DNA from: a bacterium
Lineage (GTDB): Bacteria; Zixibacteria; MSB-5A5; WJJR01
Assembly (NCBI GenBank): GCA_021813505.1
Contig: JAKAKI010000034.1
Location: forward strand, 10,059 to 74,058
Length of the DNA: 64,000 nt
Direction of reading: 5' to 3'
Part shown: in pieces, positions 686-15,339 of the stretch
Layout of the letters: every line of letters starts with the position of its first letter
How positions within the stretch are numbered: the first letter of the stretch is position 1
Position numbers and translations under genes: made by a program
Notes under the pieces: generated by a model
Database searches by the model: none
The model's input: the letters and a program-made list of their open reading frames with translations, nothing else
What the model was told of the DNA's origin: nothing

Positions 686-1813
686 TTATGGACGCGGGGC
701 GAGATCGATATCTTCCGTAAACCGGCCGGATTCTGAGAAGATCAGTTTGTAGAGTTTCTTTGTCCGGCTGTTAACAACCAAGATGGGGCCGCGAACAGAA
801 TTGATGTACACTTTGTCAGAGTTGGGCAGAAACCGAATGCTCCACGGTCTCAAGATTCCGGCGAATCCAGGTTCTGACCAGGATAACGAAACTGTATCCT
901 TTAATACGCCGGTGACTGCGTCGTAGACATGCACGCTGGGTTTGTGATCCGGATCCCATCCAAGTCGATCACCATAATCGGCGGTCCAAACTTCGCGGCC
1001 GTCCGGACTGACGCGACAATCGTGGGGTATATAGCCAGTCCTCTGAAGGAAGACCAGTGAGTGGTTGGCCAGATCATAGCCCGCCAGGGATACTGGATAA
1101 ACGTTTCCGAAAGCGATCCCATAGAAATGAGTCCCGTCTTGAGAGAAGGTGAAAGGCAGATCGACTTGAAGCAGGGTACCAGAATCCGGGCGTATGGCAA
1201 ACGAATCTATTGGCGCGCCGTTGGAATCAAATACCACGTACTGATAGGAAGGATGAGACATTGAGTCGTGCTGGTTATCCGCGCTGGCCACACGTCCACT
1301 CGATCCAAGTGGTCCGGTCATCCATCGCGGGCGTGCCCATACTTCTTTCAAGTTGAAGCCTGGAATGTTGTAAACAAGACTGCTATCGAACTGAGGACAG
1401 ATGATAATTCGCTCCGATGGCAGAAAGACCGGTGGGAGTGATGGCGCTGACAAACTAGTTAGAGGTGTGCGTGTGACTGCATCGAAGATCTCCGGTGGGC
1501 GCCCTGAGCCCAAGACGGCAAAGTACTTTCCGTCGGGGCAAGCGACAATTCCCGGTCCTGTTTGGAAGCCATGAGTGATGCTGTCAATCACGGAGTCGGT
1601 GGCGCAATTGATGACGGCTATCCAGCCCTCGGAGTAGCCGTGCATGGCCGCGTAGAGCAGGTACTCCGGTTCCGGTTGCGGCTGAATTCCGGATTCACAA
1701 CTCGTTAATGACGACAGGACCCAGGCAGTGATCGCCAGCCTGGCGAGCCAGGGGACGAGAGTCATTACGCCCCTCCCAGCACAGCGCTTCTTCATTCCAA
1801 CGGCGTGTGTCAT
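686..1813 (-). CDS. Beta-propeller (YVTN-type repeat) lipoprotein, paralog A
   Basis: The start MTHAVGMKK... is preceded by GGAGGTGAA. The signal peptide with lipobox LSSLTSC follows. Repeated ...PDGKYFAV.../...SPDGREVWT... blocks are typical of YVTN beta-propeller repeats. The track ORF 686..1903 extends upstream, but the start chosen here is SD-supported. Confidence 0.6.
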   Translation of the reverse strand: MTHAVGMKKRCAGRGVMTLVPWLARLAITAWVLSSLTSCESGIQPQPEPEYLLYAAMHGYSEGWIAVINCATDSVIDSITHGFQTGPGIVACPDGKYFAVLGSGRPPEIFDAVTRTPLTSLSAPSLPPVFLPSERIIICPQFDSSLVYNIPGFNLKEVWARPRWMTGPLGSSGRVASADNQHDSMSHPSYQYVVFDSNGAPIDSFAIRPDSGTLLQVDLPFTFSQDGTHFYGIAFGNVYPVSLAGYDLANHSLVFLQRTGYIPHDCRVSPDGREVWTADYGDRLGWDPDHKPSVHVYDAVTGVLKDTVSLSWSEPGFAGILRPWSIRFLPNSDKVYINSVRGPILVVNSRTKKLYKLIFSESGRFTEDIDLAPRP

Positions 1814-1886
1814 TTCACCTCCTATGACCGGACTTCGTGATACTGAATTCTCCAAGCATGTCTCACGTTCTTCATCGATTCCCTCC

Positions 1887-3014
1887 TCATGGACGTGGGG
1901 CAAGATCGATGTCCTCGACCCACCGGTTGAAGTTGGGAAAGATCAATTTGCCGACAGTCTTTGTTCGCGCATTGATGACGAGCAGCGGCTGAAGGCCCGC
2001 AACAGAATTCACGTAGACCTTATCCGATCCGGGGAGGAAGCGAATGTTGGACGGTGCCAGAGTTCTGTTGGGATCGGCGTAATAGCCGGTGATCGGTACA
2101 GTGTCCTTGTGAAATCCCGTGGATGCATCATAGACGTCAATGCGGCCGTGCCAGTCGGGAGCAAAACCGAGCAAATCACCATGATCGGTGGTCCACACCT
2201 CCAGTCCGTCCGGACTGACGCGGCAGTGCTGGAATGCACCGGCAGGCTGGAGAAAGAGAAGTGAGTGATTGCTCACATCATAACCGGCGAGAAATGGCCC
2301 GCCTTGGATACCATAGGCAAGTGCATAGAACCGGTTCCCATTAGGAGAAAACGTGAAGGCTCCAATGCTGAGCGCAGTGTCGCCGTGCTTGATGGAGAAC
2401 GAATCAACGGGAGTGCCGTTGGGATCGAACACTACGATCTTGTGGAGATCGTGCCGTGGGGGCTGTTCACGTTGGGAGTCGAGACTGGCAGTCCTACCGT
2501 CGCTTCCAGCAGGCTCCGTGAGCCAGCAAGGACGTGGCCACGTCTCCCGGTACTCAAAACCCGGTATAGTGTAGACGCGCGTGCTGTCATAATCCGGCGC
2601 GAGAATCATGTGCGCGGAGGGAAGAAACACCGCTGGCAATGATGGCGCCGCCAAGTACGTGATTTGCGTCCGGGAGCTCGCTTCGAAAATTTCTGGTGGT
2701 CTATTGGAGCCAAGTACGGCAAAATACTTCCCGTCGGGGGAGGCAACGACGCCAGGGCTGGACTGGAAGCCACGAGTGACGCTGTCGATTACAGAGTCAG
2801 TTGCACAATCGATGACGGCGATCGAACCCTCGCTGACACCGTGCATGGCCGCGTAGAGCAGGTACCTCGGTTCCAGTTGCGGCTGAATTCCGGATTCGCA
2901 ACTCGTTAGTGACGACAGGACCCCGGCAGAGATTGCCAGCCTGGCAAACCAGGGGACGAGAGCCCTTACGCCACTCACGCCATAGAGTTTCTTCATTCCA
3001 ATGGCGTGTGTCAT
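1887..3014 (-). CDS. Beta-propeller (YVTN-type repeat) lipoprotein, paralog B (tandem duplicate of A)
   Basis: It has the same N-terminus (MTHAIGMKK...LSSLTSC lipobox) and the same C-terminus (...EDIDLAPRP) as paralog A. Its 5' leader is nearly identical (catttcacctcctatga(c/t)cggacttcgtgat) with the same SD. Confidence 0.6.
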   Translation of the reverse strand: MTHAIGMKKLYGVSGVRALVPWFARLAISAGVLSSLTSCESGIQPQLEPRYLLYAAMHGVSEGSIAVIDCATDSVIDSVTRGFQSSPGVVASPDGKYFAVLGSNRPPEIFEASSRTQITYLAAPSLPAVFLPSAHMILAPDYDSTRVYTIPGFEYRETWPRPCWLTEPAGSDGRTASLDSQREQPPRHDLHKIVVFDPNGTPVDSFSIKHGDTALSIGAFTFSPNGNRFYALAYGIQGGPFLAGYDVSNHSLLFLQPAGAFQHCRVSPDGLEVWTTDHGDLLGFAPDWHGRIDVYDASTGFHKDTVPITGYYADPNRTLAPSNIRFLPGSDKVYVNSVAGLQPLLVINARTKTVGKLIFPNFNRWVEDIDLAPRP

Positions 3015-4073
3015 TTCACCTCCTATGATCGGACTTCGTGATCCTCGACTTGGTTTTTGAATATCACGGCCTGACGCCCTCCGCTACGTCCCAAACGGCG
3101 GGACCTGGATGGGAATTAACCTCCTGACAACTCGGTTGTTTCTGGCGATCTCGTTTCAAAGGTCTGATGAATCTGTCCTAAACGACCCCTTCCCTTCTGA
3201 AGGCGCACTCACAGGTGCGTCCCGTTACTCTGGCCGACTCAAATGGCGCAATGATAAGTTGATTGTCTCTTGGGGGTGATGAGGCGCGATGAGCCGCCTA
3301 TGGCCGCGGCAATTCCAGCGGATCAATGGGGGATTGACCTGACCCGGAACTAGTAAGCGCACCTCAAGATGGTTGAGGGCATTCGAATTCGTCTGGGAGA
3401 CAGGTACAAACGGGCGGGCGCACGCTACGGCACGCTTGCCCGGGGCTAAACCCAATCGTCGATGCGGAATATTCACGTCCGCTCAAAATTTGATACTGCT
3501 TCAACGGCCGAGCACCGGTGCTGCTCCGGCACTGTGTTAATAACTTCGGCAACCGCATAACACATGTCAAGACAATTCATAGCATGTTGAAACCCAAGAA
3601 CTAGCAACCCCAGTATCATATTGGTAACTGCCACTCCCTCAGGAAGTTGCGTTACCCGACGGGAGGCTTCGATCGCGTCCGACTCATGGTGCATTAACGA
3701 ACACAAGTTCCCGCTCATCCCACCTTTTCCGTCTTCCGGCACGGACAGCCAATATGACATAATGACAACTCCGGGAATGCAGACAAAAGCACTCCCGTCG
3801 CCGTTCACGGCATGTGATCGGCAACCATCAAGCGAGTGGTGCTCGGCATCAGTCACGAACAATGAGGACTCGCCACATCCACTAAACAGCGTTTGCACAG
3901 CCCGGCTCCGCACGGGACGCGGCACCGTGCAGCCATCATGAAAAAGTGCCCTGTCCCTTGTCAAGATGTATTTTGGGGGCGTGCGACGCGGCCGGTGGAA
4001 GACGGCTCCACTGGTGCCCCACTCGGGTGTGCCCGGGACTGGAGCAGGACATCAACTTGTGCAGGATCGATCT

Positions 4074-4925
4074 TTAGGGGATATCTTTGCCGGCAATCTT
4101 ATCGCGCTCGCTCATGTCGATGGGCGCGAAGTTGTCTTTGGAGAAGCTGTTCAGCACAACAATGGCAATGCGGCGATTGGCCGGGTCCTCGGGTTTGTTT
4201 AGGAAGCGGGGGTGGGTGTCGGCGAAGCCGCGAACCTCGTTGATTTTGGAGGGATCCACACCGTTTTGCTCGAGAATCCGTCGGGCGGCATTGGCACGAT
4301 CGGCCGACAATTCCCAGTTCGAGTAACTGCTACGGTTGGCGTACTGCTTGCTGTCGGTGTGCCCTTCCAGGGCGACTTTGTATCCAAGCGGTCCGATGTG
4401 GCTGGCGATCATTGAGACAGCATGGATGCCCCCGGAAGACAATTGGGCACTCCCCAGTTCGAAGAAAGTCGAGTCCCCACCCTCGGTGAGTTGAATGCGG
4501 AGGCCTTCGTCGGTGACCTGAACCTCGACGAATTTCGAGAGCTCACCCAATCCGTTGTCACCCTGCAATGCCCTGGTCAGTTCTTCCGCTTTGGCCTGGA
4601 GTTTCTCGCGCACCACCTTTTCCTGGGTTTTGCGAAAGTCCTCAGTCTCCTTCGCACTCTTGGGTGGATTGATCGCGCCGGAGGAACCCTCGAGGACGCT
4701 GCTCCCCGCCTTGTCCGCGAAGCCAACGGGATCGCGAAAATACCCGCCGACGCCCTCTTTGACCTTTTCACTCTGATTGACCAGCCACATCACCAGGAAG
4801 AACGCCATCATCGCCGTCACAAAGTCCGCGTAGGCAACCTTCCACGCACCGCCGTGATGGCCTTCGTGCGCGCCGTGCTTCTTGACGATGATGACTGGTG
4901 CCTTGTCGTCTTTTTCGGCTTCCAT
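4074..4925 (-). CDS. motB: Flagellar motor stator protein MotB (OmpA-like peptidoglycan-binding C-terminus)
   Basis: The single TM segment WKVAYADFVTAMMAFFLVMWL is the MotB signature. The C-terminal ...NRRIAIVVL... is an OmpA-like motif. The gene lies immediately downstream of motA. Confidence 0.88.
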   Translation of the reverse strand: MEAEKDDKAPVIIVKKHGAHEGHHGGAWKVAYADFVTAMMAFFLVMWLVNQSEKVKEGVGGYFRDPVGFADKAGSSVLEGSSGAINPPKSAKETEDFRKTQEKVVREKLQAKAEELTRALQGDNGLGELSKFVEVQVTDEGLRIQLTEGGDSTFFELGSAQLSSGGIHAVSMIASHIGPLGYKVALEGHTDSKQYANRSSYSNWELSADRANAARRILEQNGVDPSKINEVRGFADTHPRFLNKPEDPANRRIAIVVLNSFSKDNFAPIDMSERDKIAGKDIP

Positions 4926-4948: not shown

Positions 4949-5806
4949 TTAACCCTTGGTTGCGCGGCAGGCTTCTTCGAGCTCAGTGAATCCCGGGCGG
5001 ACGTCGCTATAGATGGAACGGCGGGCGAACTCAACGGCGATCGCCGCGACGCAGCCCTTGTGGAATGCCAACAGGACCTGCTTCAGTGCAACAAAGTAAC
5101 GGCCATTCTCTTCCGCCTTGCTGGCCAGGTTGGCGGCCAGCGGCTGAACGAAGCCGTACGACAACAGCACGCCCAGGAATGTCCCCACCAGCGCCGCGCC
5201 CACTTTGTGCCCGATTTCCTCGGCAGGACCGTCGATCGCGCCCATCGTGATGACAATGCCCAGTACGGCCGCCACGATCCCCAGACCGGGCAGAGAATCA
5301 CCGGTGGTCTGCAGCACCTTCGAGGGTTTGGTGGCTTCCTCGTGGTGCGTTTCGAGGTCGACGTCCATTAACGCGTCCAAATCGTGCGCCTGGACCCCCG
5401 ATCCGGAGATGATCAGCCGCATCGTGTCGGCCAGGAAACTCACCGCGTGATGGTTTTTCGCGAAGCTGGGATACTTGCCGATGATCGCACTGCCTTCGGG
5501 CCGTTCGATGTGACCCTCCAGGGCCATAATTCCATCGCGGCGCGCCACGGTCAGCAGTTCGTACAGCATCGAAAGCAGATCGAGATAGTCTTTTTTTGTG
5601 GGGCCGATCTTGGGCAGACTCGCCAGTTGCGAGATCATCGTCTTGAGTGTCTTGGGGCCGCTGCCAATGATCAGTGCCCCCCCTGCCGCGCCTCCGATGA
5701 TGAGGAATTCGGCGGGCTGGAAGAGGACGAGGAGCTTGCCGCCCTCCATAAGATAGCCACCGAGAATGGCGGCAATGACAATGCCGATCCCTGCAAATGC
5801 AATCAC
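4949..5806 (-). CDS. motA: Flagellar motor stator protein MotA
   Basis: The 285-aa, 4-TM protein is collinear with E. coli MotA (GGYLMxGG, YQPAE, RLIISG, ETHEE, GDSLPxFGIVAAV, MVGTFLGxLLxYGF, PIAVEF motifs). Confidence 0.9.
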   Translation of the reverse strand: MIAFAGIGIVIAAILGGYLMEGGKLLVLFQPAEFLIIGGAAGGALIIGSGPKTLKTMISQLASLPKIGPTKKDYLDLLSMLYELLTVARRDGIMALEGHIERPEGSAIIGKYPSFAKNHHAVSFLADTMRLIISGSGVQAHDLDALMDVDLETHHEEATKPSKVLQTTGDSLPGLGIVAAVLGIVITMGAIDGPAEEIGHKVGAALVGTFLGVLLSYGFVQPLAANLASKAEENGRYFVALKQVLLAFHKGCVAAIAVEFARRSIYSDVRPGFTELEEACRATKG

Positions 5807-6090: not shown

Positions 6091-6852
6091 TCAATACTGG
6101 GATTCGGCCTGGGGGCCCAGGATGCGGATGAAGTTGCGAAACAACTCAAGCCCCGGCCACTGTTTGTGGCGAAGCTCTTGATGATCGGCGATCCAGCGAG
6201 GGATCAGGGGTATCGGAATCAGCCGGGGCGATTCACCGCTCAACTCCGCTGTCAGCCGGGCCAGCGGAACCGTCAACGGGAGCGGCATGGGGACCTTGTC
6301 GATGTCGTTGGCGATCGGATCGACGCAGAGTTCGGCGGGAGAGGTGACGTTGTATTCGCGGCATACGACCGGGCGATGCAGATGGATGCTGCACAGTTCA
6401 TCCACCAGAAACGGGCACGCCATCCCGAGGAGAAAATACTTGCGCGCGATCGGGAGCACAGCTTCGTCGACATATTCTGGATTGAGCAGTTCATCGATCA
6501 TCTGCAATCGCTCGAGTTCGCCGGCGATTCTACTCATGCGTGACATAACTTCATCGCGGTGAGCCGGCTCAAATGAATCGATCAGATCCTGCAGGTAGAA
6601 TGCTTCCGGCGGCGAAATCGCGACCATGTGGTGGCAGCAGGCTGCGCACCGGGCACGGCAGGAAACGTGGCGTCCTGCGTGCACTTCGCGCCGATGGGCC
6701 TGGGCCACCAGAACGTTGGTCAATTCAAAAGCGGTCGGCACGAGTTCCGCCAGCCGCATCGGGCCCGTGTCGACCTCGACGCGGCCCCGCATGACGCCTT
6801 CCGGTGTCTGGAGCGTGACGGACATTAGTGCTACGCGACTGTCGCCCGTCAT
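6091..6852 (-). CDS. YkgJ/UPF0153-family Cys-cluster (putative Fe-S or zinc-binding) protein
   Basis: The cysteine cluster CRARCAACCHH (C-x3-C-x2-CC) is close to the CxxCxxCC signature of the YkgJ / flagellin N-methylase (FliB) family. The start overlaps the upstream gene by 4 bp. Confidence 0.45.
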   Translation of the reverse strand: MTGDSRVALMSVTLQTPEGVMRGRVEVDTGPMRLAELVPTAFELTNVLVAQAHRREVHAGRHVSCRARCAACCHHMVAISPPEAFYLQDLIDSFEPAHRDEVMSRMSRIAGELERLQMIDELLNPEYVDEAVLPIARKYFLLGMACPFLVDELCSIHLHRPVVCREYNVTSPAELCVDPIANDIDKVPMPLPLTVPLARLTAELSGESPRLIPIPLIPRWIADHQELRHKQWPGLELFRNFIRILGPQAESQY

Positions 6853-7613
6853 TTGGTGAATACCGGATCAAGATGCAATTGGAAGATGTGGCCGCAGTAC
6901 CGGCACCGGATTCGTTCGCCCTCCCGCCCCTGCCGCACACCCAGGCTCCGATTGCAGCCATCACAGCCGATCCATGACACGGGTTGTGAGTAGTCCACCG
7001 GTCCGCTGGGGCGGTCGAGATACTCCACCTGATGGGCAGCGTAGATGCCGGCTGCAATCGGCTGCCAGGTTGAACCTCCACCCATTGCGGCGTCGCGTTT
7101 GTGAATCGCCTCGCGATGGCTGGCGTCGCCGTGGGCGATCACATACTGGCTGACGGTTTCCCAGAAGGGAAGGCTGTCCGTCTGATCGAGGCAGGTAATC
7201 CAAAGATCGACGGCCGCATGAGGGTCACGAGAAACAACTGCCCGGCCCACGTTGAAGATTACCTCGGGATCGGAGTCCCCTCTGAACCGGCCCGCGAGCC
7301 ATTCCCGGTCACCGGGATGGAACTGAATCAGATATCCTGCTGCTTTGCCGCGTGCGGGAGCCTCAGGATTCTCCAGGGTGCGGCGGCCAAGTTCACGGAG
7401 CCTGTCATCGGCAGACCCACGGGTGAACAGCATCCAGATCATGTAACACACCGAGGGTGATGTTTCTCGCGTCAGCACATCAAGGAGCGTTCCGATCCCA
7501 TCGCTGACTTTCAGGCGCTTGCCGACAACCTCTGTCAGCAGGGCGCGTAAGCAATCGAGTTTTTCCTTTTCGTCCTTTGCATCAAGCAGGGACTCGAATT
7601 TAACCTGGCTCAC
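6849..7613 (-). CDS. Hypothetical HEAT-like repeat protein with C-terminal zinc ribbon; candidate Rhs immunity protein
   Basis: It has a 4-bp start/stop overlap with the Rhs gene. Composition is balanced and non-low-complexity. The C-terminal CDGC...CRYCGH is a zinc ribbon. The internal repeats are HEAT_2-like (DDRLRELGRR..., DSDPEVIFNVGRAV...). The immunity role is inferred from position only. Confidence 0.4.
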   Translation of the reverse strand: MSQVKFESLLDAKDEKEKLDCLRALLTEVVGKRLKVSDGIGTLLDVLTRETSPSVCYMIWMLFTRGSADDRLRELGRRTLENPEAPARGKAAGYLIQFHPGDREWLAGRFRGDSDPEVIFNVGRAVVSRDPHAAVDLWITCLDQTDSLPFWETVSQYVIAHGDASHREAIHKRDAAMGGGSTWQPIAAGIYAAHQVEYLDRPSGPVDYSQPVSWIGCDGCNRSLGVRQGREGERIRCRYCGHIFQLHLDPVFTK

Positions 7614-10600
7614 GAAGATCCCCCCGAACTACCGCCACCGCCGGAAGGATCGAGCGGCTCGAGCCTTTCGGGATTCGGGTGATCCGGTAGCGTGCTGGGC
7701 CGCTCGGGCGCACCATCGGACATGATGGGCGTATGCAGCGGCCTTTGAAAATCGTCCATTCGTCGTGTGTACTCCGGTGAATCGCGCGTTTCGCCCGGCC
7801 CGGGCTGCGGCGCAGGACCGGCGGGAGTGCCATCATCGTGGTAGTGCGTCGTCCCGGGGACACGGCTTCGTGGTTCGAGGAAAGATTGCTCATTAGGAGT
7901 CATGCCTGTCCCACCCGGTCCGAGCGGCGTACTTTCCGGTGTCGCTCCCGAATCGAAACTGCTCCGATGAACATGTGGCGGGAATCCAGCCGGCCCCATC
8001 GATTCCGCGTGCCCCCATGGATCGACGCGAACTGCGTGAGTCGTCCCATCGGCATCCCGCATCATCCAGATGCCGCTAACCTCTTCTTGATTCCCCGTCC
8101 GAGGGCTTCGGTCTGTTCCGGGGGGACGCACTTCCACATACCCTGCCGCCCGGAGCATCTCGGTGATCTCGGCATAGGTTCGATAGGCCATCGACGGGAG
8201 TTCTTGCACCGGCATCCCCGGACGCACCTCCGGCTCCTCTTCGCTGGGATGCGGGGTCGTACTGGAGCAATCATCGCTGAGCCCGGATGGATCGATCTTG
8301 CGCCAGGGATTGGACGGGTACGCGTAGATGTTGATTCCGCCTTTGAGCAGAATCGGATCGGGCTCCAGAAACCGGGCTGTTGCCGGGTCGTAGTAGCGAA
8401 ACCCGTTGTATCGCCAGCCGGTTTCACGGTCATAATATTGCCCGGGAGATCGCAGGTTGAACTCGATGCCCTGGCTCTCATCCACAATCCCTTCGCCGTA
8501 TGGCTCAGGCTCCCAGGACCAAACACAGCGCCCATCGCGATTCGTGATCGCACGGGGCAGACCGATGTCATCGGAATGAATGTAGTAGGGAACAACAACG
8601 CCGTCGCCACCCACAGCTCCCGTTTGTTCAACAAACATGAACGGCGCATTCGCGCCGTCGAGATAGAGATAGATCCTACGGTGATTGTCGTCAGAGATCT
8701 CACGCAGCAGGCGGTGCTCGTCGTACTGGAACGTGACTCTCTTGCCGTCGCACTCCTTCCACTTCCTTCGTCCCAGCGCATCGTAGCCAAAGGTGACAAT
8801 ACGGCCCTGTTCTGTCCTGACCTTCAGGAGCCGGCCGTTTCCATCATAGGAGACTTCACGGACGCCCTGCGATGTTGCGATCTGCTTCGGACAACCCCTC
8901 GAATCATAGGTGTACGTGCGGTCGTCGACACGGTTCAGGCGATTCCCAATACCGAATTCCCACGCCTTCCCGGGATTGACCACGATGTTTTCCGCCGCAT
9001 CATAACGGAAGTCGGCACGACGGCTTTCCGAACTCTGGGCGCTGATGATGCGATCCAGATCGTCGTACCCATAGGAATTGTGCGAACTGCGAAGCCAGTC
9101 GGTCTCGCGCAGACGGTTGCCGTCGGCATCGCACTTGTACTGCCGGAGAACCAACCGCTTCTGACGGTTCTCCAGCCGCTCCACCCGGTGCCACTCCAGG
9201 ACGCCCTGTGGCGTCATCGACTTAACTTCCACCCACCCGTTGGGGAAAACGTGTGAGCGCAAGTCGCCCCCCGCACCGCTGATTTCATGCTTATCACCGA
9301 GCGGATCGATCAACTCGATCGTGGCGCCCGTCGCACTGTAGGCGAACTTCGCGCTGAAGCCCTCTGACCATTCAATCTTCTCGACGTTGCCGTTAGCGCT
9401 GCGATGAAATGCCACCGACCCTTCGCGACATTCGATCATTGCCGGCTTGCCGTGACGGTCGTACTTGGTCTTGATGTCATCGCCGTCGTTCGTGGCCTTG
9501 ACAACACGCCCACAGGCATCTGGCACGAACTCGGCGGTGCAGGCCCCCGCCGGCTCTTCTTTGATCTTGAACCTTCCCGGCCCGTATTCGCGACGGACAA
9601 GTATTGCCCCATCGCCGTCATACACCTCTTTGACATTCCAATCGGCGTCGAAAATACGGCGGGAAAAAGGCGTCTGATCGAGGGTGATCACCGCCGGCCG
9701 GTCTTTGTGATCCCGTTCAAATTCGGTCTGATGCCCTGCACCATCGACGACCTTCACCATCTCATCGGCTCGATTGAATGAATAGCGGATGGTCTGGCCG
9801 TTGGGAGCACGCGTGGCGACACACTTGTTCCACGATGAGTATTCGTAGCGCCGGGTGCGGCCCCGTGGATCGGTATCCGATGTGAGATTCCCCTCGGCGT
9901 CATACTGCCGCTTCGATTGCGATCCATCCGGGAAGGTGATCTCAAGGAGACGGCCCAAATCGTCGAAGCGATACCGCATCCGACGGTCCCCCTCCCGCCG
10001 TTCAATGATCCTCCCCCAATCGTCATAGCGGAAGGCGGTGAGAAGCGCACCGGGGTCATTGAAGATGGCGATGAGCCGGCCCCCGTCATCGTAGCGGAGA
10101 TTGGTCGCCTTGCCACTCGGATCGATCTTTCGGGAGAGACGATTTCGGGAATCGTATTCGTAGAGCGTCACATCGCCGGACGGGCTCATCTCGCCGTCCA
10201 GGTTCCCCCGATGATCGTAGGACCATTTCGTCGTGTTTCCGTCCGGGTCAGTCTCTTCGATCTTCAGGTTCAGGTCGTTGTAGGCGCGCTTGGTGGTTCC
10301 GCCAAAGGGGTTGGTCTCTTCAACGACATTCCCGAAATCATCATACTTGTACTTCCTGGTGCTCCCCGTCTCGTCGACTTCGGCGACTTTATTGCCGGCT
10401 TTGTCGTACTCGAAGACCTGGACCCCGCCATATGGATCCATGCGCGAGGTGATCAGTCCACGCTCGTCGTAACGATAGATAATCTTGCCGCCGGTGGGCG
10501 AATGCAGAATGGTAATGCTCGCCGGAGGCAGATACTCTACCGTACCGGCATACAGGTCATCGTCACCGCGCGACTTGATGCAGCGGCCGTCACGGTCATA

Positions 10601-12019
10601 GGCATAATGGAACGAGTATCCGTTGCGGTCGGTCTTGCGCGTCATTTGGTGCTTGTCATCGTAGGTGTACTTGTACCGCCTGCCCACCGCATCAATGACC
10701 GCCACCATGTCGCCGTGGTCGTCGTATTCGTAGGCCACCAGCGGCCGGAGCTTGCCGTCACTGCAGGCCAGCGCGAGGCGGGTGATGCGGCCGTCGGTGT
10801 GCGACTCGACTTTGATTCTCTGCCCGGTGGAATGTACGATCTCGTGCAGCCGTCCTTTGGGGTCGTAGCGGAATCCGATCGCCTCACCGGCGCGGTTCGA
10901 GAGGCGTGCGATCCACGCCTGGTCTGATTTCGGTAGTCGCACGAACTGCGCGGTCATACCGTCGATCCCGCTTACGGTGAATTGAGTCGCGGACTGTCTC
11001 GTCAGCGTGAGTTTTTCGAACGGCAGAAATTCAGACCCGCCATCCTTCTCGATGACCGGGAAGACAATCGACCGATTCTGTTCGTTGTGATAGACGATTG
11101 TCGCATGATGGAATTCCAGCCAGCGCTGATACTGGTGGCTCCAGTTCCAACCCAGCGGACCATCCGTCCCCAGAGTGTTGGCATAATACCGCTTCCAGGA
11201 AAGCTGAAGAGGCCCACCGATTTCGAAATCTGTCTTGTCCTCGAAGTTCGAGCCGGAGACGAGATCAATTGGCTCGAGTCCCAGCCGGCAGCGATTGCGG
11301 TCAATGAACCTGCCGGCCGCCTTCGATCCGGCATAGCCGGCGGCTGCCGTGATCGCGTTGGTGACGAATGCCTCGACCAGTTGCGCAAAGGTCATCCCAA
11401 CCTGGACGTGTGAAAACGCGATCACTGTGGCATTGGGAACGATCGGAATCTCGGAGCAGGACGCGCCTCCCAGGGGAACTCCCAAGGCCATTGATCCGCC
11501 ATTGACCGACACGGTCGGCGAGCCGATGGCGGTGTTCCCTTCGGCGCCAGGCAAAGGGATCGGCGGAATAAGCATCTGCGCCCATGTCTGCCACATCGTG
11601 AACGGCTGGAAGGCACCGGTGATGCCATCCCACACCGCTTTCGAGGACGAGACCTGGGGATCGGTTAACGACGATGCGATTCCTTTGACCACACCGATCA
11701 TGATATTGGCTGCGAGAGTGAAGAGGGTCACGAAGCCGACGGTGATGAGATTAGTGATGTACCAGACTTTGAAGGTGACCTTCGGAATATCGACCCACGT
11801 TCCCTGGGGAATGTGGATCGAGTACCCTTTGGCGCCGGAGCAGCACGCGGGACTGCCGTTGATCATCACATTGGACATCGGGAACTTCGGCGACGTCCAG
11901 AGCATGAGCACGCCGACAAACGGATGCGGATTGAGTGGAACGGGCGGAATCGCGGTCGAATGCGCATCAATCCCGATCAGCATCGTGTTGCCGGTCGTGC
12001 ATGCTGGGAAAAGCGGCAT
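7610..12019 (-). CDS. rhs: T6SS effector: N-terminal PAAR-like (DUF4150) domain, TM helices, Rhs/YD-repeat cage and a C-terminal variable region
   Basis: There are many YD repeats (RYDDGGRL, YDAEGNL, YEYDxxxR...). The Rhs core ends with GQYYDRETGWRYNGFRYYDPATARFLEPDPI...NIYAYPSNPWRKIDPSGL. The N-terminus MLIGIDAHSTAIPPVPL...VMINGSPACCSG is PAAR-like, followed by hydrophobic helices. The gene lies immediately downstream of vgrG and DUF2169. Confidence 0.9.
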   Translation of the reverse strand: MPLFPACTTGNTMLIGIDAHSTAIPPVPLNPHPFVGVLMLWTSPKFPMSNVMINGSPACCSGAKGYSIHIPQGTWVDIPKVTFKVWYITNLITVGFVTLFTLAANIMIGVVKGIASSLTDPQVSSSKAVWDGITGAFQPFTMWQTWAQMLIPPIPLPGAEGNTAIGSPTVSVNGGSMALGVPLGGASCSEIPIVPNATVIAFSHVQVGMTFAQLVEAFVTNAITAAAGYAGSKAAGRFIDRNRCRLGLEPIDLVSGSNFEDKTDFEIGGPLQLSWKRYYANTLGTDGPLGWNWSHQYQRWLEFHHATIVYHNEQNRSIVFPVIEKDGGSEFLPFEKLTLTRQSATQFTVSGIDGMTAQFVRLPKSDQAWIARLSNRAGEAIGFRYDPKGRLHEIVHSTGQRIKVESHTDGRITRLALACSDGKLRPLVAYEYDDHGDMVAVIDAVGRRYKYTYDDKHQMTRKTDRNGYSFHYAYDRDGRCIKSRGDDDLYAGTVEYLPPASITILHSPTGGKIIYRYDERGLITSRMDPYGGVQVFEYDKAGNKVAEVDETGSTRKYKYDDFGNVVEETNPFGGTTKRAYNDLNLKIEETDPDGNTTKWSYDHRGNLDGEMSPSGDVTLYEYDSRNRLSRKIDPSGKATNLRYDDGGRLIAIFNDPGALLTAFRYDDWGRIIERREGDRRMRYRFDDLGRLLEITFPDGSQSKRQYDAEGNLTSDTDPRGRTRRYEYSSWNKCVATRAPNGQTIRYSFNRADEMVKVVDGAGHQTEFERDHKDRPAVITLDQTPFSRRIFDADWNVKEVYDGDGAILVRREYGPGRFKIKEEPAGACTAEFVPDACGRVVKATNDGDDIKTKYDRHGKPAMIECREGSVAFHRSANGNVEKIEWSEGFSAKFAYSATGATIELIDPLGDKHEISGAGGDLRSHVFPNGWVEVKSMTPQGVLEWHRVERLENRQKRLVLRQYKCDADGNRLRETDWLRSSHNSYGYDDLDRIISAQSSESRRADFRYDAAENIVVNPGKAWEFGIGNRLNRVDDRTYTYDSRGCPKQIATSQGVREVSYDGNGRLLKVRTEQGRIVTFGYDALGRRKWKECDGKRVTFQYDEHRLLREISDDNHRRIYLYLDGANAPFMFVEQTGAVGGDGVVVPYYIHSDDIGLPRAITNRDGRCVWSWEPEPYGEGIVDESQGIEFNLRSPGQYYDRETGWRYNGFRYYDPATARFLEPDPILLKGGINIYAYPSNPWRKIDPSGLSDDCSSTTPHPSEEEPEVRPGMPVQELPSMAYRTYAEITEMLRAAGYVEVRPPGTDRSPRTGNQEEVSGIWMMRDADGTTHAVRVDPWGHAESMGPAGFPPHVHRSSFDSGATPESTPLGPGGTGMTPNEQSFLEPRSRVPGTTHYHDDGTPAGPAPQPGPGETRDSPEYTRRMDDFQRPLHTPIMSDGAPERPSTLPDHPNPERLEPLDPSGGGGSSGGSS

Positions 12020-12022
12020 AAC

Positions 12023-13135
12023 TCAGGCATCCCCGACGATGACGTCCATGCGGGTCATATCCACGAAATCGGGACGGCCATCGTAGATTACGGCCCCGCG
12101 CCACACCAAATCGACAACCATCTGTTCGCCGAAGATCGCCACCGTATGGAGAACCACCGGCGGCTTTTCGGGTCCCTTGCCCCAGTCGATGGAAATGACG
12201 GGCGTCATTCCCGGGAGATTAAACGACAGTTCTCCCGACGGTTCGAGATTGCGCAACTGGATTGGCTCGTCGCCTTTGAGGTACGGGACTGCCAGACCTA
12301 CAGAGGCTCCGTTGAAGAGCCGAAAATCCAGCATCGGCAATTTCAATTTCTTCTGCGCTTCGACTTGGTCCTTCTGAACAACACCCAATGTCATCTCGTG
12401 CAGCTCTTCGTACATCGGCATGTACGCCGGCAGCACTCCAGCGAAACTCGCGCGTGGGTACCAGCCAAGCCCGAACCAGCTCAGCCCGGCGGGCATCGGT
12501 TGCTTGTGCCACTTCTCGATCGACCCGGTTATCAGACGCTGAGGAGTCAGCAGGTCCTGCGGGTCCTCGAAATTGGGAAGTGCCAGACCATCGACGGCTT
12601 CTTTGGTGTTCCTCACCACAAAGCCCGTCCCGATGAAGTTCCGGGCATACGCCATCGGCACTTTGGGATCGGCGTGAATGTCCACGCCGCCATAGGCGCG
12701 TTCATAGCGCAGATCGATGGATTGAAAGGGCGCGGGATTGGTGAAGATCGGTATGCCGGCACTGTTGAATGCACAGCGCCGTTCGCCGAACGCCGCGATT
12801 GTCTTCTGATGATTGCCGACTCGCAGCGACGCGATACACTGTGTGGCGGGTTTGCCCGCGGGAGCGTACACCTTGCCGGTAAACACGACATCGGTGAGTG
12901 GCTTATACGGGTACAAATCGGTTTCGATCTCAATTGAACCGATCATGGGATCGTTCTTCTCGTAGTAGCGCGTGGCCTGGGTCAACGGCGATTGCTCTGG
13001 CACCGGCTTGCAGACCGCCTTGGGTTCAATCTTGAATCGGCGTTTGGCGAGAACGGAGAAGATCGTCTTGCCATCCGGGTCAGAGCCGGGGAGCATCACG
13101 AATGCGTAGATATCGTCAGGTTTGCTTGCCGCCAT
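12023..13135 (-). CDS. DUF2169-family T6SS effector adaptor/chaperone
   Basis: A ~370-aa protein between vgrG and a PAAR-like effector, the position occupied by DUF2169 adaptors such as Atu3641 in the Agrobacterium vgrG2-tde2 module. The sequence is ...YERAYGGVD.../...LSWFGLGWYPRASF.... Confidence 0.75.
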   Translation of the reverse strand: MAASKPDDIYAFVMLPGSDPDGKTIFSVLAKRRFKIEPKAVCKPVPEQSPLTQATRYYEKNDPMIGSIEIETDLYPYKPLTDVVFTGKVYAPAGKPATQCIASLRVGNHQKTIAAFGERRCAFNSAGIPIFTNPAPFQSIDLRYERAYGGVDIHADPKVPMAYARNFIGTGFVVRNTKEAVDGLALPNFEDPQDLLTPQRLITGSIEKWHKQPMPAGLSWFGLGWYPRASFAGVLPAYMPMYEELHEMTLGVVQKDQVEAQKKLKLPMLDFRLFNGASVGLAVPYLKGDEPIQLRNLEPSGELSFNLPGMTPVISIDWGKGPEKPPVVLHTVAIFGEQMVVDLVWRGAVIYDGRPDFVDMTRMDVIVGDA

Positions 13136-13167: not shown

Positions 13168-15339
13168 TTATGGATTCAGCAGAATCATCCCGCCTTTAAT
13201 TGTGTTGGAGGCCTGCGCGGTTGATGAGACCATGGCACCCGAGGTATCGTTGGCGGTGGTGGCCTTCGACTGAATAGTCTGACCCTCGATCTTTACACCT
13301 GCGGTACTGATCGTGATCGTGCCCCCGGCGCCCTTGATCTCAACCGTTCCGTCGAGCTTCATAGTGAGTTCGCTGCCACCGCATTTGACGTGAAACTTGT
13401 CGGATTGAACCGTGATATCGTAGGGGCCCTTGATATTGTCCGTCTTGGTTCCCGTCAGCACGTTGAGCGCTTCATTCCCGGTGTTGACGTTGACGGTACG
13501 GTTGCCCGTGAGAATGTTGAGTTCGTCGTTACCGGTGTTGACGTTCACGGTCCGGTTGCCTGTCAGGACATTGTGCTCGTCATTGCCGGTGTTGACGTTG
13601 ATAGTGCGATTCCCGGTGTGAACCGTGACCTTCTCGTTTCCATCCTGGATGTCCTCGGTACGATCTCCCTTGATCGTAATTGTCTCTTTGCCGTTGACCG
13701 TTTCCGTGCGGTCGTTGGTCACCGTGGTCGTTTCGTCATGTGTAACCGTCTTGGTGCGGTCGTGGCCGATCGAGAGCGACTCGTCGTGGCCCGTGGATTG
13801 GTTCTTGTCGTTGACGGTTGTGATCGTCAGGTTCTTCTGGGCATGCTGGTAGATCTCCTCGGAACCTTTCTTGTCCTCGAATCGGTATTCGTTGAAACCA
13901 CCGTGGCCCTTGGTGGAATCCGACTTGATCGTGCTCTTGGTCTTTTCCTGATCCAGCGGGTAGGGCGGCATGTTGTCGCCATTGTAGATGCGCCCGACGA
14001 TGATCGGCCGGTCGGGATCCCCTTCGAGAAAATCTACGATGACTTCGTGGCCGATCCGAGGAATCCACATCGCTCCCCAACTGGCACCCGCCCAGAGCTG
14101 GGAAACACGAATCCAGCAGGATGATTTTTCATTGCGCTGTCCTTCGCGATCCCACGGGAACTGCACTTTGACGCGGCCGTATTTGTCGACGTAAATCTCC
14201 TCACCGGACGGCCCGGTCACGACAGCGGTCTGTGTACCCTCAACCACCGGCTTGGTCGTCTTTCGCACAGGACGGTATGGCGTGTTCGAGGGAATGCACT
14301 GGAAACGATTGTCATAGGTGAACCGGCCGCTGGCATCATCCTGCCCCAGTGGCTGGGTGCCGACATGCCGCACCGAGATCAGCAGATATTCCTGGTTGAA
14401 CGAATTGCGCGTGTAGTCGGCGAGCGTGAATTTGTACCCCGGCACGAGCCGGCGGCAAACGCTCTGCCCTTCACCCAGCAGCCGTTTTGCCTGGGATGAT
14501 TCCAGACGTATCCGGGTGAGCTCGGCGCCGGTCCCCTCGTCCATGTAGAGTCCGGGAAACTCGTAGACTTCGAGTGCGGGATCGCGGTCCGCCGCCTGGT
14601 TCTTGGTCAGGTCGAGTGTCGGCCGCTCGAAGTTGTAGTCGCGCAGGACGGACGTGCCGGACTTGATCTGCTGCGAATAGCGGAAGTCGTAGATAAATTC
14701 CTCGGCTTCGACCGCTCCCGACGGATCGCGGAAGACGACATCACTGGCGCCGTCGATGGGGACATAGACATCGCTCGAATCGGCCATCACCAGGACTTCT
14801 TTGCCTTCCTGATGTTCGAAGAAGTAGAAGATCCCCTCCTCTTCGAGAAGCCGGGAGATGAAGTTCCAGTCACTCTCGCGGTACTGCACACAGTAATCGC
14901 GCTTCACATAGTTTGTCCGCTGCAGGGCAAACCGGAAATAGTCGGATTGGATTTCTGCGTCGGTCAGTACCTGTTCGACGATCTCCTTGACAGTCTTTTC
15001 CTGAAAGATCCGGCTCTTGGAGCGCTGGGTGAGCAGCCACACCCGGGGCACGAATTCGGCGTAATACGGAGTGAACGTCTCACCGGCGACCCCTTGCTCG
15101 AACCGGCTGACAATGCCGTAGATGGATCGCGTACCGTCCTCGTAGTTGATGTCCAGTTGTGCGGGGATTCCGACGATGGCATCCAGATCGATTTCGCCAT
15201 CACGCGCCGCGAGCTCGATTTTGAAACTGAACAGCTCGCTCATCCCTTCCGTGCCGTTGACACGCAGGACGCGCAACTCATCGGAATAACCGTCGGACTC
15301 GAACGTGAAGATCGATTCATCGGAAAGCAGGCTAGGCAT
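13168..15339 (-). CDS. vgrG: T6SS spike protein VgrG (TssI)
   Basis: The N-terminal gp27-like region is followed by a gp5-like region (...VSQLWAGASWGAMWIPRIGHEVIVDFLEGDPDRPIIVGRIYNGDNMPPY...). The C-terminal beta-helix has tandem TGNRTVNVNTGNDExNxL repeats. There is no C-terminal effector extension. Confidence 0.95.
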   Translation of the reverse strand: MPSLLSDESIFTFESDGYSDELRVLRVNGTEGMSELFSFKIELAARDGEIDLDAIVGIPAQLDINYEDGTRSIYGIVSRFEQGVAGETFTPYYAEFVPRVWLLTQRSKSRIFQEKTVKEIVEQVLTDAEIQSDYFRFALQRTNYVKRDYCVQYRESDWNFISRLLEEEGIFYFFEHQEGKEVLVMADSSDVYVPIDGASDVVFRDPSGAVEAEEFIYDFRYSQQIKSGTSVLRDYNFERPTLDLTKNQAADRDPALEVYEFPGLYMDEGTGAELTRIRLESSQAKRLLGEGQSVCRRLVPGYKFTLADYTRNSFNQEYLLISVRHVGTQPLGQDDASGRFTYDNRFQCIPSNTPYRPVRKTTKPVVEGTQTAVVTGPSGEEIYVDKYGRVKVQFPWDREGQRNEKSSCWIRVSQLWAGASWGAMWIPRIGHEVIVDFLEGDPDRPIIVGRIYNGDNMPPYPLDQEKTKSTIKSDSTKGHGGFNEYRFEDKKGSEEIYQHAQKNLTITTVNDKNQSTGHDESLSIGHDRTKTVTHDETTTVTNDRTETVNGKETITIKGDRTEDIQDGNEKVTVHTGNRTINVNTGNDEHNVLTGNRTVNVNTGNDELNILTGNRTVNVNTGNEALNVLTGTKTDNIKGPYDITVQSDKFHVKCGGSELTMKLDGTVEIKGAGGTITISTAGVKIEGQTIQSKATTANDTSGAMVSSTAQASNTIKGGMILLNP
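13447..13608 (-). repeat. In-frame 3 x 54-nt tandem repeat encoding the VgrG beta-helix (TGNRTxNVNTGNDExNxL x3)
   Basis: Three consecutive 54-nt units share ...ggtgttgacgtt.... This is a coding repeat, not a CRISPR array. Confidence 0.7.

Follow-up and report, generated by a model that had tools for sequence, protein, structure and literature searches.

A conserved, Pro/Gly-rich extension behind a predicted toxin core in a type VI secretion-linked Rhs protein of Zixibacteria

Does the atypical C-terminal region of an Rhs protein from an uncultured Zixibacteria bacterium serve as toxin cargo, or is it what remains of a toxin that has decayed? The protein is encoded on a 64,000-nucleotide (nt) stretch of contig JAKAKI010000034.1 (assembly GCA_021813505.1, positions 10,059 to 74,058), hereafter called the window, to which all coordinates below refer. 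An initial annotation, made from the sequence alone, had described a short candidate domain followed by a long disordered tail, and had proposed either a novel delivery or anchoring element or a degenerate, frameshifted toxin. Our analysis indicates that the region is very probably a genuine, constrained toxin-immunity cargo, in which the tail is translated, under purifying selection and mostly non-globular.

Residues of the C-terminal region (CT) are numbered from the first one after the DPSGL motif, and the CT comprises 222 residues (7613-8278), an extent that agrees with the initial annotation and with the TIGR03696 match, which ends at the motif. The Rhs-associated core ends at ...NIYAYPSNPWRKIDPSGL, and its cleavage motif, ...KIDPSGL, is of the DPxGL type; we take DPSGL to be the putative autoproteolysis site of the protein, presuming cleavage from what is known of the family. 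The parts of the open reading frame (ORF) that matter here are listed below, with the AlphaFold per-residue confidence (predicted local distance difference test, pLDDT) and the ratio of nonsynonymous to synonymous substitution rates (dN/dS) given where they define a part.

7610-12019, minus strand: Rhs effector ORF, 1469 amino acids (aa), from the ORF list and its translation, with Pfam and NCBIfam matches
8279-8503, minus strand: Rhs-associated core domain, aa 1173-1247, with the C-terminal end ...DPILLKGGINIYAYPSNPWRKIDPSGL, from TIGR03696 (E 2.2e-20) and the sequence
8198-8278, minus strand: acidic Pro/Ser/Glu-rich linker, CT 1-27, from composition, with pLDDT <50 for CT 1-20
7952-8197, minus strand: predicted toxin core, CT 28-109, from a dN/dS of 0.04, the match to the distant homologue P0008, invariant columns and AlphaFold secondary structure
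7967-8023, minus strand: invariant cluster D86, H90, H102 and H104 of the toxin core, from alignment columns
7721-7951, minus strand: proximal extension, CT 110-186, Pro/Gly/Thr-rich loops between conserved islands, from alignment, nonsynonymous and synonymous differences, and AlphaFold
7613-7720, minus strand: distal tail, CT 187-222, a conserved motif and then a Gly/Ser run, from alignments, pLDDT and composition

The composition of the tail is as first described, i.e., low-complexity, Pro/Gly/Ser/Thr-rich and acidic over about 113 residues. CT 110-222 contains 19% Pro, 15% Gly, 11% Ser and 10% Thr (compared with 5.2% Pro and 9.7% Gly in the Rhs core), has 13% bulky hydrophobic residues and a net charge of -8, and lies beyond the charge-hydropathy boundary, among disordered sequences. 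Ser, Gly and Pro each account for 19% of the distal tail, the last ten residues of which are GGGGSSGGSS (7613-7642), and Gly and Ser together make up 21.6% of the whole CT. The AlphaFold model of the CT, built on a four-sequence alignment, has a mean pLDDT of 51.6 and refines this picture. Composition assigns all of CT 110-222 to disorder, and pLDDT does so for CT 136-155 and 178-222 (about 30, below 50); CT 111-135 and 161-178 are predicted to be partly helical, with helices at 128-134 and 168-178 in blocks of pLDDT ~76-80, so that disorder does not run throughout the tail. The proposal of a disordered tail of about 110 residues therefore stands with respect to composition and to a largely non-globular character, but not as a single 110-residue coil, given the two predicted helices and the 53 invariant columns among the 118 positions aligned across four lineages. 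In the model, the clearly floppy part is the last ~45 residues together with the internal Pro/Gly loops.

Could the tail nevertheless be a meaningless open frame, left behind by a frameshift or by the decay of an ancestral toxin domain? Its low-complexity composition favors this possibility, as does the drop in GC content at third codon positions (GC3), which is 0.72 for the Rhs core and 0.61 for the tail, together with a rise at first and second positions. However, GC3 is lowered to a similar degree in the rest of the cassette, with 0.64 for the toxin core and 0.66 for the immunity gene, the flanking T6SS (type VI secretion system) and motility genes having values of 0.72-0.75. Codon usage, which had been suggested as a test for a non-coding tail, is thus ambiguous on its own; since the toxin core and the immunity gene drop alike, the lower GC3 over 6849-8278 is best read as marking an exchanged toxin-immunity cassette, consistent with horizontal exchange, and not as non-coding DNA.

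The comparison among lineages argues strongly against decay. The tail is kept in frame over its whole length in four lineages, apparently all Zixibacteria, whose protein sequences diverge by up to 34%. Conserved islands punctuate the proximal extension (GMTxNExxFLxPR, VPxTxYxDDGT, RMDxY/F and PLHTPI), and the distal tail carries the motif GAPxRPxxLPxHPxPxxLxP. Between the window and the related locus L001, dN/dS is 0.04 in the core (dS 0.93) and 0.15-0.17 in the proximal tail (dS 1.2-1.5). For more distant pairs, the proportion of synonymous differences (pS) is saturated at 0.7-0.9, and the proportion of nonsynonymous differences (pN) stays well below it, at 0.12-0.15 in the core, 0.23-0.31 in the proximal tail and 0.16-0.42 in the distal tail; over the compared pairs, the proximal extension has a pN of 0.17-0.31 and a pS of 0.59-0.90. 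All insertions and deletions are of 3, 6 or 21 nt, with the Gly/Ser run varying in length. A displaced toxin domain in another frame, which had also been considered, did not appear: the other frames of 7500-8400 hold only ORFs of up to 97 aa with no family match. Purifying selection, in-frame indels and conservation across four lineages thus refute the degenerate or frameshifted toxin, which we regard as extremely improbable.

The 3' end of the Rhs ORF has a history of its own. Its last ~150 nt (7613-7760) are nearly identical between the window and L001, with a dS of 0.03-0.06 compared with ~0.9-1.5 elsewhere in the CT; differences from L001 resume in the immunity gene, and other pairs of lineages have diverged across the same segment. 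Recent recombination at the toxin/immunity junction probably produced this tract. An RNA structure was considered as the cause and set aside (folding z of -0.24, with other pairs diverged there). Two readings of the Gly/Ser codons were also rejected, namely that they merely provide the Shine-Dalgarno sequence of the immunity gene (locus L002 keeps the run and has a separate intergenic AGGAGG) and that they form a linker to a frameshift toxin-immunity fusion (gene frame and spacing differ between lineages). At L001, within positions 1-30, an in-frame stop lies four codons before LPSMAYRTY..., so that no Rhs core is attached to the toxin module there, which reflects either an orphan CT-immunity cassette or an artefact of the contig end.

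Relatives of the CT are few. In a word-indexed protein search, P0001 was the single homologue (84% identity, encoded on the 707-bp metagenome contig L001), and the same kind of search with a CT profile, over at most 8000 candidates that low-complexity words had probably crowded, returned P0001 alone. Starting from homologues of the downstream gene, we reached loci L002/L003, L004 and L009, which share the synteny of the window and whose Rhs CTs, of 216-217 aa with a variable Gly/Ser end, are 66-68% identical to it over their full length; window-type homologues of the downstream gene always stand behind an Rhs protein bearing this CT. NCBI cluster-member names and a genome-collection match place the close relatives in metagenome-assembled genomes (MAGs) of Candidatus Zixiibacteriota. 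An exhaustive phmmer search of 1.84 billion representative proteins gave two matches, a close Rhs protein (P0007) and P0008, a 354-aa protein that is the sole distant homologue (E 3.6e-5, 35% identity) and covers CT 14-106 only. P0008 and the near-identical P0009 and P0010 are each standalone and hydrophobic in their N-terminal region. In an uncultured Verrucomicrobia MAG, they are encoded directly behind ClpV in a T6SS cluster, where VipB, Hcp, ImpE, TssE, TssF and TssG precede them. At the Verrucomicrobia loci (L006/L010), the 354-aa homologue has no known T6SS loading domain, and a DUF4123 adaptor and a PAAR protein are encoded a few genes downstream of it.

The gene downstream of the Rhs ORF supplies the partner.

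6849-7613, minus strand: cognate immunity candidate, 254 aa, with a GTG start that overlaps the Rhs stop as GTGA

A 209-aa gene that follows P0009 is homologous to it (BLASTP E 1e-18; 185 aa aligned at 28% identity). Such recurrence of a toxin module with a related small gene behind it, here in two unrelated T6SS-linked architectures, is a classic hallmark of toxin-immunity pairs, and this sequence evidence identifies the core as a T6SS toxin with a cognate immunity protein, which is predicted to protect against it. The body of the immunity candidate (aa ~1-190) is alpha-helical and weakly HEAT-like: its profile matches alphaRep designs in the PDB (E 0.0014), and Pfam HEAT_2 appears in four of six members, at best with E 0.0064 and below the gathering score. 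Its C-terminus (~6852-7046) carries a CxxC...CxxC zinc ribbon (C217, C220, C237 and C240) that is absent from the Verrucomicrobia homologue. No signal peptide is present in the 254-aa sequence, and because of this we infer that the core acts in the cytoplasm of the target cell.

The limits of the cassette can be drawn from a locus that lacks it. A scan of metagenome contigs with the toxin profile gave no match, nor did tblastn against plasmids, and a scan of metagenome contigs with the immunity profile found only L011 (Ga0315273_10000298, 2813-3259), which no longer has the toxin-immunity cassette, through loss or replacement. This locus encodes a PAAR-like protein, a DUF2169 protein and a small gp5-like ORF, with no Rhs, and it retains frameshifted fragments of the immunity C-terminus (zinc ribbon) before the CxxCxxCC, MotA and MotB genes. 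In the window, a 253-aa CxxCxxCC protein (PF03692, YkgJ-like; 6091-6852, minus strand) overlaps the stop of the immunity gene, as it does at every related locus. Because it persists at L011 without the toxin, it belongs to the conserved backbone, together with MotA/MotB (4949-5806 and 4074-4925), and not to the cassette. At L002/L003, an extra ORF for a 123-aa membrane-anchored protein lies between the immunity and CxxCxxCC genes.

On its other side, the Rhs ORF adjoins genes for delivery.

12023-13135, minus strand: DUF2169 adaptor, directly upstream of the Rhs ORF (Pfam E 4.1e-61)
13168-15339, minus strand: VgrG spike, upstream of DUF2169, with Phage_GPD and Gp5_trimer_C Pfam matches

Further upstream, a T6SS cluster identified with Pfam extends to ~32.7 kb and includes ClpV, TssG and TssF, and then TssC (VipB), TssA, TagF, TssM and TssK. 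Given this full gene set and the DUF2169 and VgrG genes adjoining the Rhs ORF, gene order and content identify the protein as the cargo effector with which a complete T6SS cluster ends. The ORF runs from an N-terminal region with a transmembrane-like stretch through DUF6531 (Pfam E 2.4e-19), RHS/YD repeats (PF05593, E 1.4e-72 in 12 stretches; TIGR01643, E 1.9e-54) and the Rhs-associated core to the C-terminal cargo, with YD_repeat_2x and Rhs_assc_core among the NCBIfam matches. It thus combines the RHS/YD shell, the core with its DPxGL-type motif, the downstream immunity gene and the VgrG/adaptor linkage that define a polymorphic Rhs effector. The N-terminal region (aa 1-245, 11285-12019) gave no Pfam, PDB, PAAR or clade-domain match; its place behind DUF2169 and VgrG would fit a PAAR-like tip domain, its transmembrane-like stretch reads ITNLITVGFVTLFTLAANIMIGVV, and the start codon differs among database copies (M1 or M13). 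Elsewhere in the window, tandem paralogous ORFs at 686-3014 (minus strand, 405 and 375 aa) have lipoprotein-like N-termini, with their first ~100 residues nearly identical; the paralogue at 1887-3014, the one of the pair that was scanned (the other being 686-1903), had no Pfam match.

What, then, might the toxin core do? The small domain first proposed at residues ~30-105 is supported by the P0008 alignment and by AlphaFold, which predicts an alpha/beta core with a helix at 35-44 and strands at 48-50, 69-74, 79-86 and 102-109. Columns invariant between the Zixibacteria and Verrucomicrobia branches include E37, R43, S68, D77, R84, D86, H90, H102 and H104, and the one Asp and three His of these that fall within 19 residues (D86, H90, H102 and H104) suggest a metal or acid-base centre. 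No usable match in Pfam, NCBIfam, PADLOC or PHROGs came from the CT, from its core by itself or from the P0008 domain, a sub-threshold PASTA match (E 0.013) being judged a chance alpha+beta resemblance. Searches of PDB sequences, with a single sequence and with a profile, returned nothing or one spurious match (E 1.6), and fold searches with the two low-confidence AlphaFold models gave no match, a negative that does not exclude either of the two folds weighed below. We predict that the core is most likely a nuclease, a prediction in which our confidence is about evenly balanced. It is based on the invariant Asp/His cluster, on the cytoplasmic immunity protein, and on the fact that nucleases are the commonest cytoplasm-acting Rhs cargo. 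A periplasmic LAS-type peptidase, considered on account of the D...H...HxH pattern, is disfavored by the different order of motifs and by an immunity protein lacking a signal peptide.

With respect to fold, the leading candidate is a His-Me-finger-like strand-His-strand-helix arrangement, with which the predicted structures are compatible. His-Me fingers are beta-beta-alpha elements in which strand 1 bears the catalytic His at its C-terminal end and the first turn of the helix holds an Asn or His (PMC5714182), and the Tox-GH-E family, whose published signature is "GH, E, N, E", is borne on Rhs/T6SS toxins (PMC3482391). Accordingly, the core could be a divergent HNH/EndoVII toxin closest to Tox-GH-E and acting as a Mg/Zn-dependent DNase, in which H90, where strand 1 ends, would serve as general base and N129/E130 (E/H in P0008) would bind the metal at the start of the helix. 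The window prediction has a comparable order (strand 79-86 ending in the invariant D86, the invariant GH, a loop, strand 102-109 and helix 128-134, which begins with N/E), and in P0008 a strand-GH-strand unit passes directly into a helix beginning AAEKLHE. However, several features do not fit. Neither the CT, the core alone nor the P0008 domain matched PF14410 or HNH-type Pfam families at E<=10, although HMMER filters may hide very weak matches. Of the G-H-x-E and H-x-H motifs, which the initial annotation found loosely reminiscent of HNH/EndoVII families, the GH and HxH histidines are invariant in P0008, but the Glu is not, since E92 of the Zixibacteria proteins is a Val in P0008 (GHAES versus GHDVD); the suggested resemblance to GHH and WHH families is not borne out, as the xHH dyad is absent, PWGHA and ARGHD carry a single His, and there is no Pfam match. 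N129/E130 align with the AE of P0008 only in a statistically unsupported alignment (hhalign probability 0.3%), an 18-residue Pro/Gly loop separates strand 2 from the helix in the window, and the invariant H102xH104 lies outside the GH-E signature. We therefore consider this specific assignment rather unlikely, and a HicA/dsRBD-like or other small metal-independent RNase, cleaving RNA in the target, more doubtful still. The order helix-strand-strand-strand-helix in the P0008 model (mean pLDDT 47.7, from a four-sequence alignment) and the conserved His, Arg, Asp and Glu residues speak for such an RNase; however, Pfam HicA_toxin (PF07927) has no match, hhalign against E. coli HicA (6HPB sequence) gives a probability of 0.6%, the catalytic His of the G-S-H turn after strand 1 has no counterpart, and the models are of low confidence.

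The tail, too, admits of more than one reading. It is absent from P0008, the post-core segment of which aligns with it at an hhalign probability of 0.3%; DDG and H[TI]P motifs that appear common to the two in a MAFFT alignment are not trustworthy at that same probability. Being both lineage-specific and conserved, the tail does behave as an appended element. It could instead be that CT 110-186 is the C-terminal half of one larger toxin domain with Pro/Gly loops, followed by a passive spacer of ~36 residues. We regard this as unlikely, yet as a serious alternative, since the conserved islands and two helices lie within 110-180, the islands and the distal motif contain invariant His and Asp residues (YxDDGT, PLHTPI and LPxHP), P0008 likewise continues for 46 mostly helical residues past the shared core, and the length of the Gly/Ser run is variable. 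Nevertheless, CT 110-186 has no detectable similarity to the P0008 continuation, composition and charge-hydropathy group the segment with disordered sequences, and a passive spacer would not need the invariant distal GAPxRPxxLPxHPxP. Conversely, the whole tail might be a novel functional element, i.e., an egress leader, a segment for membrane translocation or anchoring, or a peptide that docks to a target-cell factor or to the zinc ribbon. Purifying selection on a non-globular segment is in keeping with this, and so is the restriction of the tail to the Rhs-borne branch, the immunity protein of which alone has a zinc ribbon. Tse15, an effector toxin of Acinetobacter baumannii, is unfolded in its Rhs cage with 23.6% Gly+Ser (PMC11461821), and the cargo of Tc toxins leaves the TcB-TcC cocoon C-terminus first (bioRxiv 10.1101/590430); the latter lends the idea an analogy, and the former shows that Gly/Ser-rich unfolded Rhs cargo is already known. 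In addition, the acidic tail offers no hydrophobic or amphipathic stretch suited to membrane insertion, and the co-occurrence of tail and zinc ribbon can be compared across two lineages only. Altogether, a novel element of this kind seems improbable to us, as does the narrower version in which the tail is a dedicated egress leader or zinc-ribbon docking peptide on an undescribed T6SS nuclease-like family of Zixibacteria and Verrucomicrobia.

The explanation toward which we lean, with modest confidence, is an intact, DUF2169-VgrG-linked, PAAR-less Rhs cargo with a nuclease core and a functional tail. The cargo would consist of an acidic linker, an alpha/beta core of ~80 residues and a lineage-specific Pro/Gly/Ser/Thr-rich extension, with the HEAT-like product of the overlapping downstream gene neutralising the core. 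The proximal extension would pack against the core with one or two helices, and the flexible distal ~36-45 residues would hold the cargo in a threadable state inside the Rhs cage and guide it out C-terminus first; they may also form a linear epitope gripped by the branch-specific zinc ribbon of the immunity protein. We advance this role of the tail, from threading and exit to the possible epitope, tentatively and by analogy. Several points weigh against the explanation as a whole. Assignment to an enzymatic family failed in Pfam, NCBIfam, PADLOC, PHROGs and PDB sequences; the AlphaFold models are poor (pLDDT 51.6 and 47.7), with the putative catalytic loop 88-102 below 50; and the helix alignment between N129/E130 and P0008 is without statistical support. 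For the tail, the link to the zinc ribbon is drawn from two lineages, the threading role is an analogy, and we know of no T6SS Rhs cage that opens through a TcA-like channel.

How does this cargo compare with known systems? It resembles the T6SS Rhs toxins Tse15 of A. baumannii, RhsA of Pseudomonas protegens and Rhs1 of Photorhabdus laumondii in its RHS/YD shell, DPxGL-type core and variable CT, with an immunity gene directly downstream and VgrG and adaptor genes upstream, and it is close to the unfolded Tse15 cargo in Gly/Ser content (21.6% versus 23.6%). It differs from these toxins in that its CT belongs to no described toxin family, half of that CT is a conserved extension with 19% Pro and a Gly/Ser end, and it comes from an uncultured Zixibacteria lineage with an N-terminus that matches neither PAAR nor a clade domain. 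Tox-GH-E (PF14410) and other HNH/EndoVII domains are likewise small modules on Rhs/T6SS toxins, and, on the predicted structure, Tox-GH-E would share with the window core a GH after a strand and acidic or Asn residues in the following helix; however, there is no hidden Markov model or fold match, the Glu of GH-x-E is not conserved in the window family, and the window core has an extra invariant HxH and a long Pro/Gly insertion before the putative helix. HicA/dsRBD-like proteins differ in showing no sequence relationship and no shared position of the catalytic His, and the window protein is a secreted effector rather than a type II toxin-antitoxin component. In TcC, the hypervariable cargo lies unfolded in an Rhs-type cocoon after aspartyl autoproteolysis, and enters the exit channel with its free C-terminus leading; Tc cocoons, unlike T6SS Rhs cages, dock on a TcA channel, and to our knowledge no C-terminal low-complexity leader has been described in Tc cargo. 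The immunity candidate, finally, resembles Imm-HEAT proteins in being an alpha-helical repeat protein directly after the toxin, with weak HEAT_2/alphaRep similarity. HEAT immunity is known for Tox-REase-7 and Ntox34, and the window toxin shows neither a match to Tox-REase-7 nor the all-alpha signature of Ntox34; the window immunity matches fall below Pfam thresholds, and the Zixibacteria version has the added zinc ribbon. We thus have a known kind of system, a T6SS Rhs effector, with an undescribed toxin core, a HEAT-like immunity protein and a conserved, mostly disordered extension.

The core and its HEAT-like partner form a very rare new pair, found in five lineages among ~15 billion proteins, and T6SS effectors in Zixibacteria and Verrucomicrobia are, as far as we know, essentially unstudied. 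Orphan CTs are frequent among Rhs proteins, and there are precedents for unfolded Gly/Ser-rich cargo, so that the rarity of the pair and the constraint on its tail are noteworthy rather than startling; in the same sense, a long disordered tail, initially thought unusual, is less surprising in view of Tse15 and the Tc toxins, and what stays unusual is its conservation as an extension. If the activity proved to be that of an ordinary nuclease and the tail dispensable, this would be one more orphan Rhs CT. A natural tail that is constrained and does not fold gives simple access to the part that a free C-terminus may play in exit or in recognition by the immunity protein, and bears on the way in which T6SS Rhs cages hold their cargo inactive, release it and let it refold.

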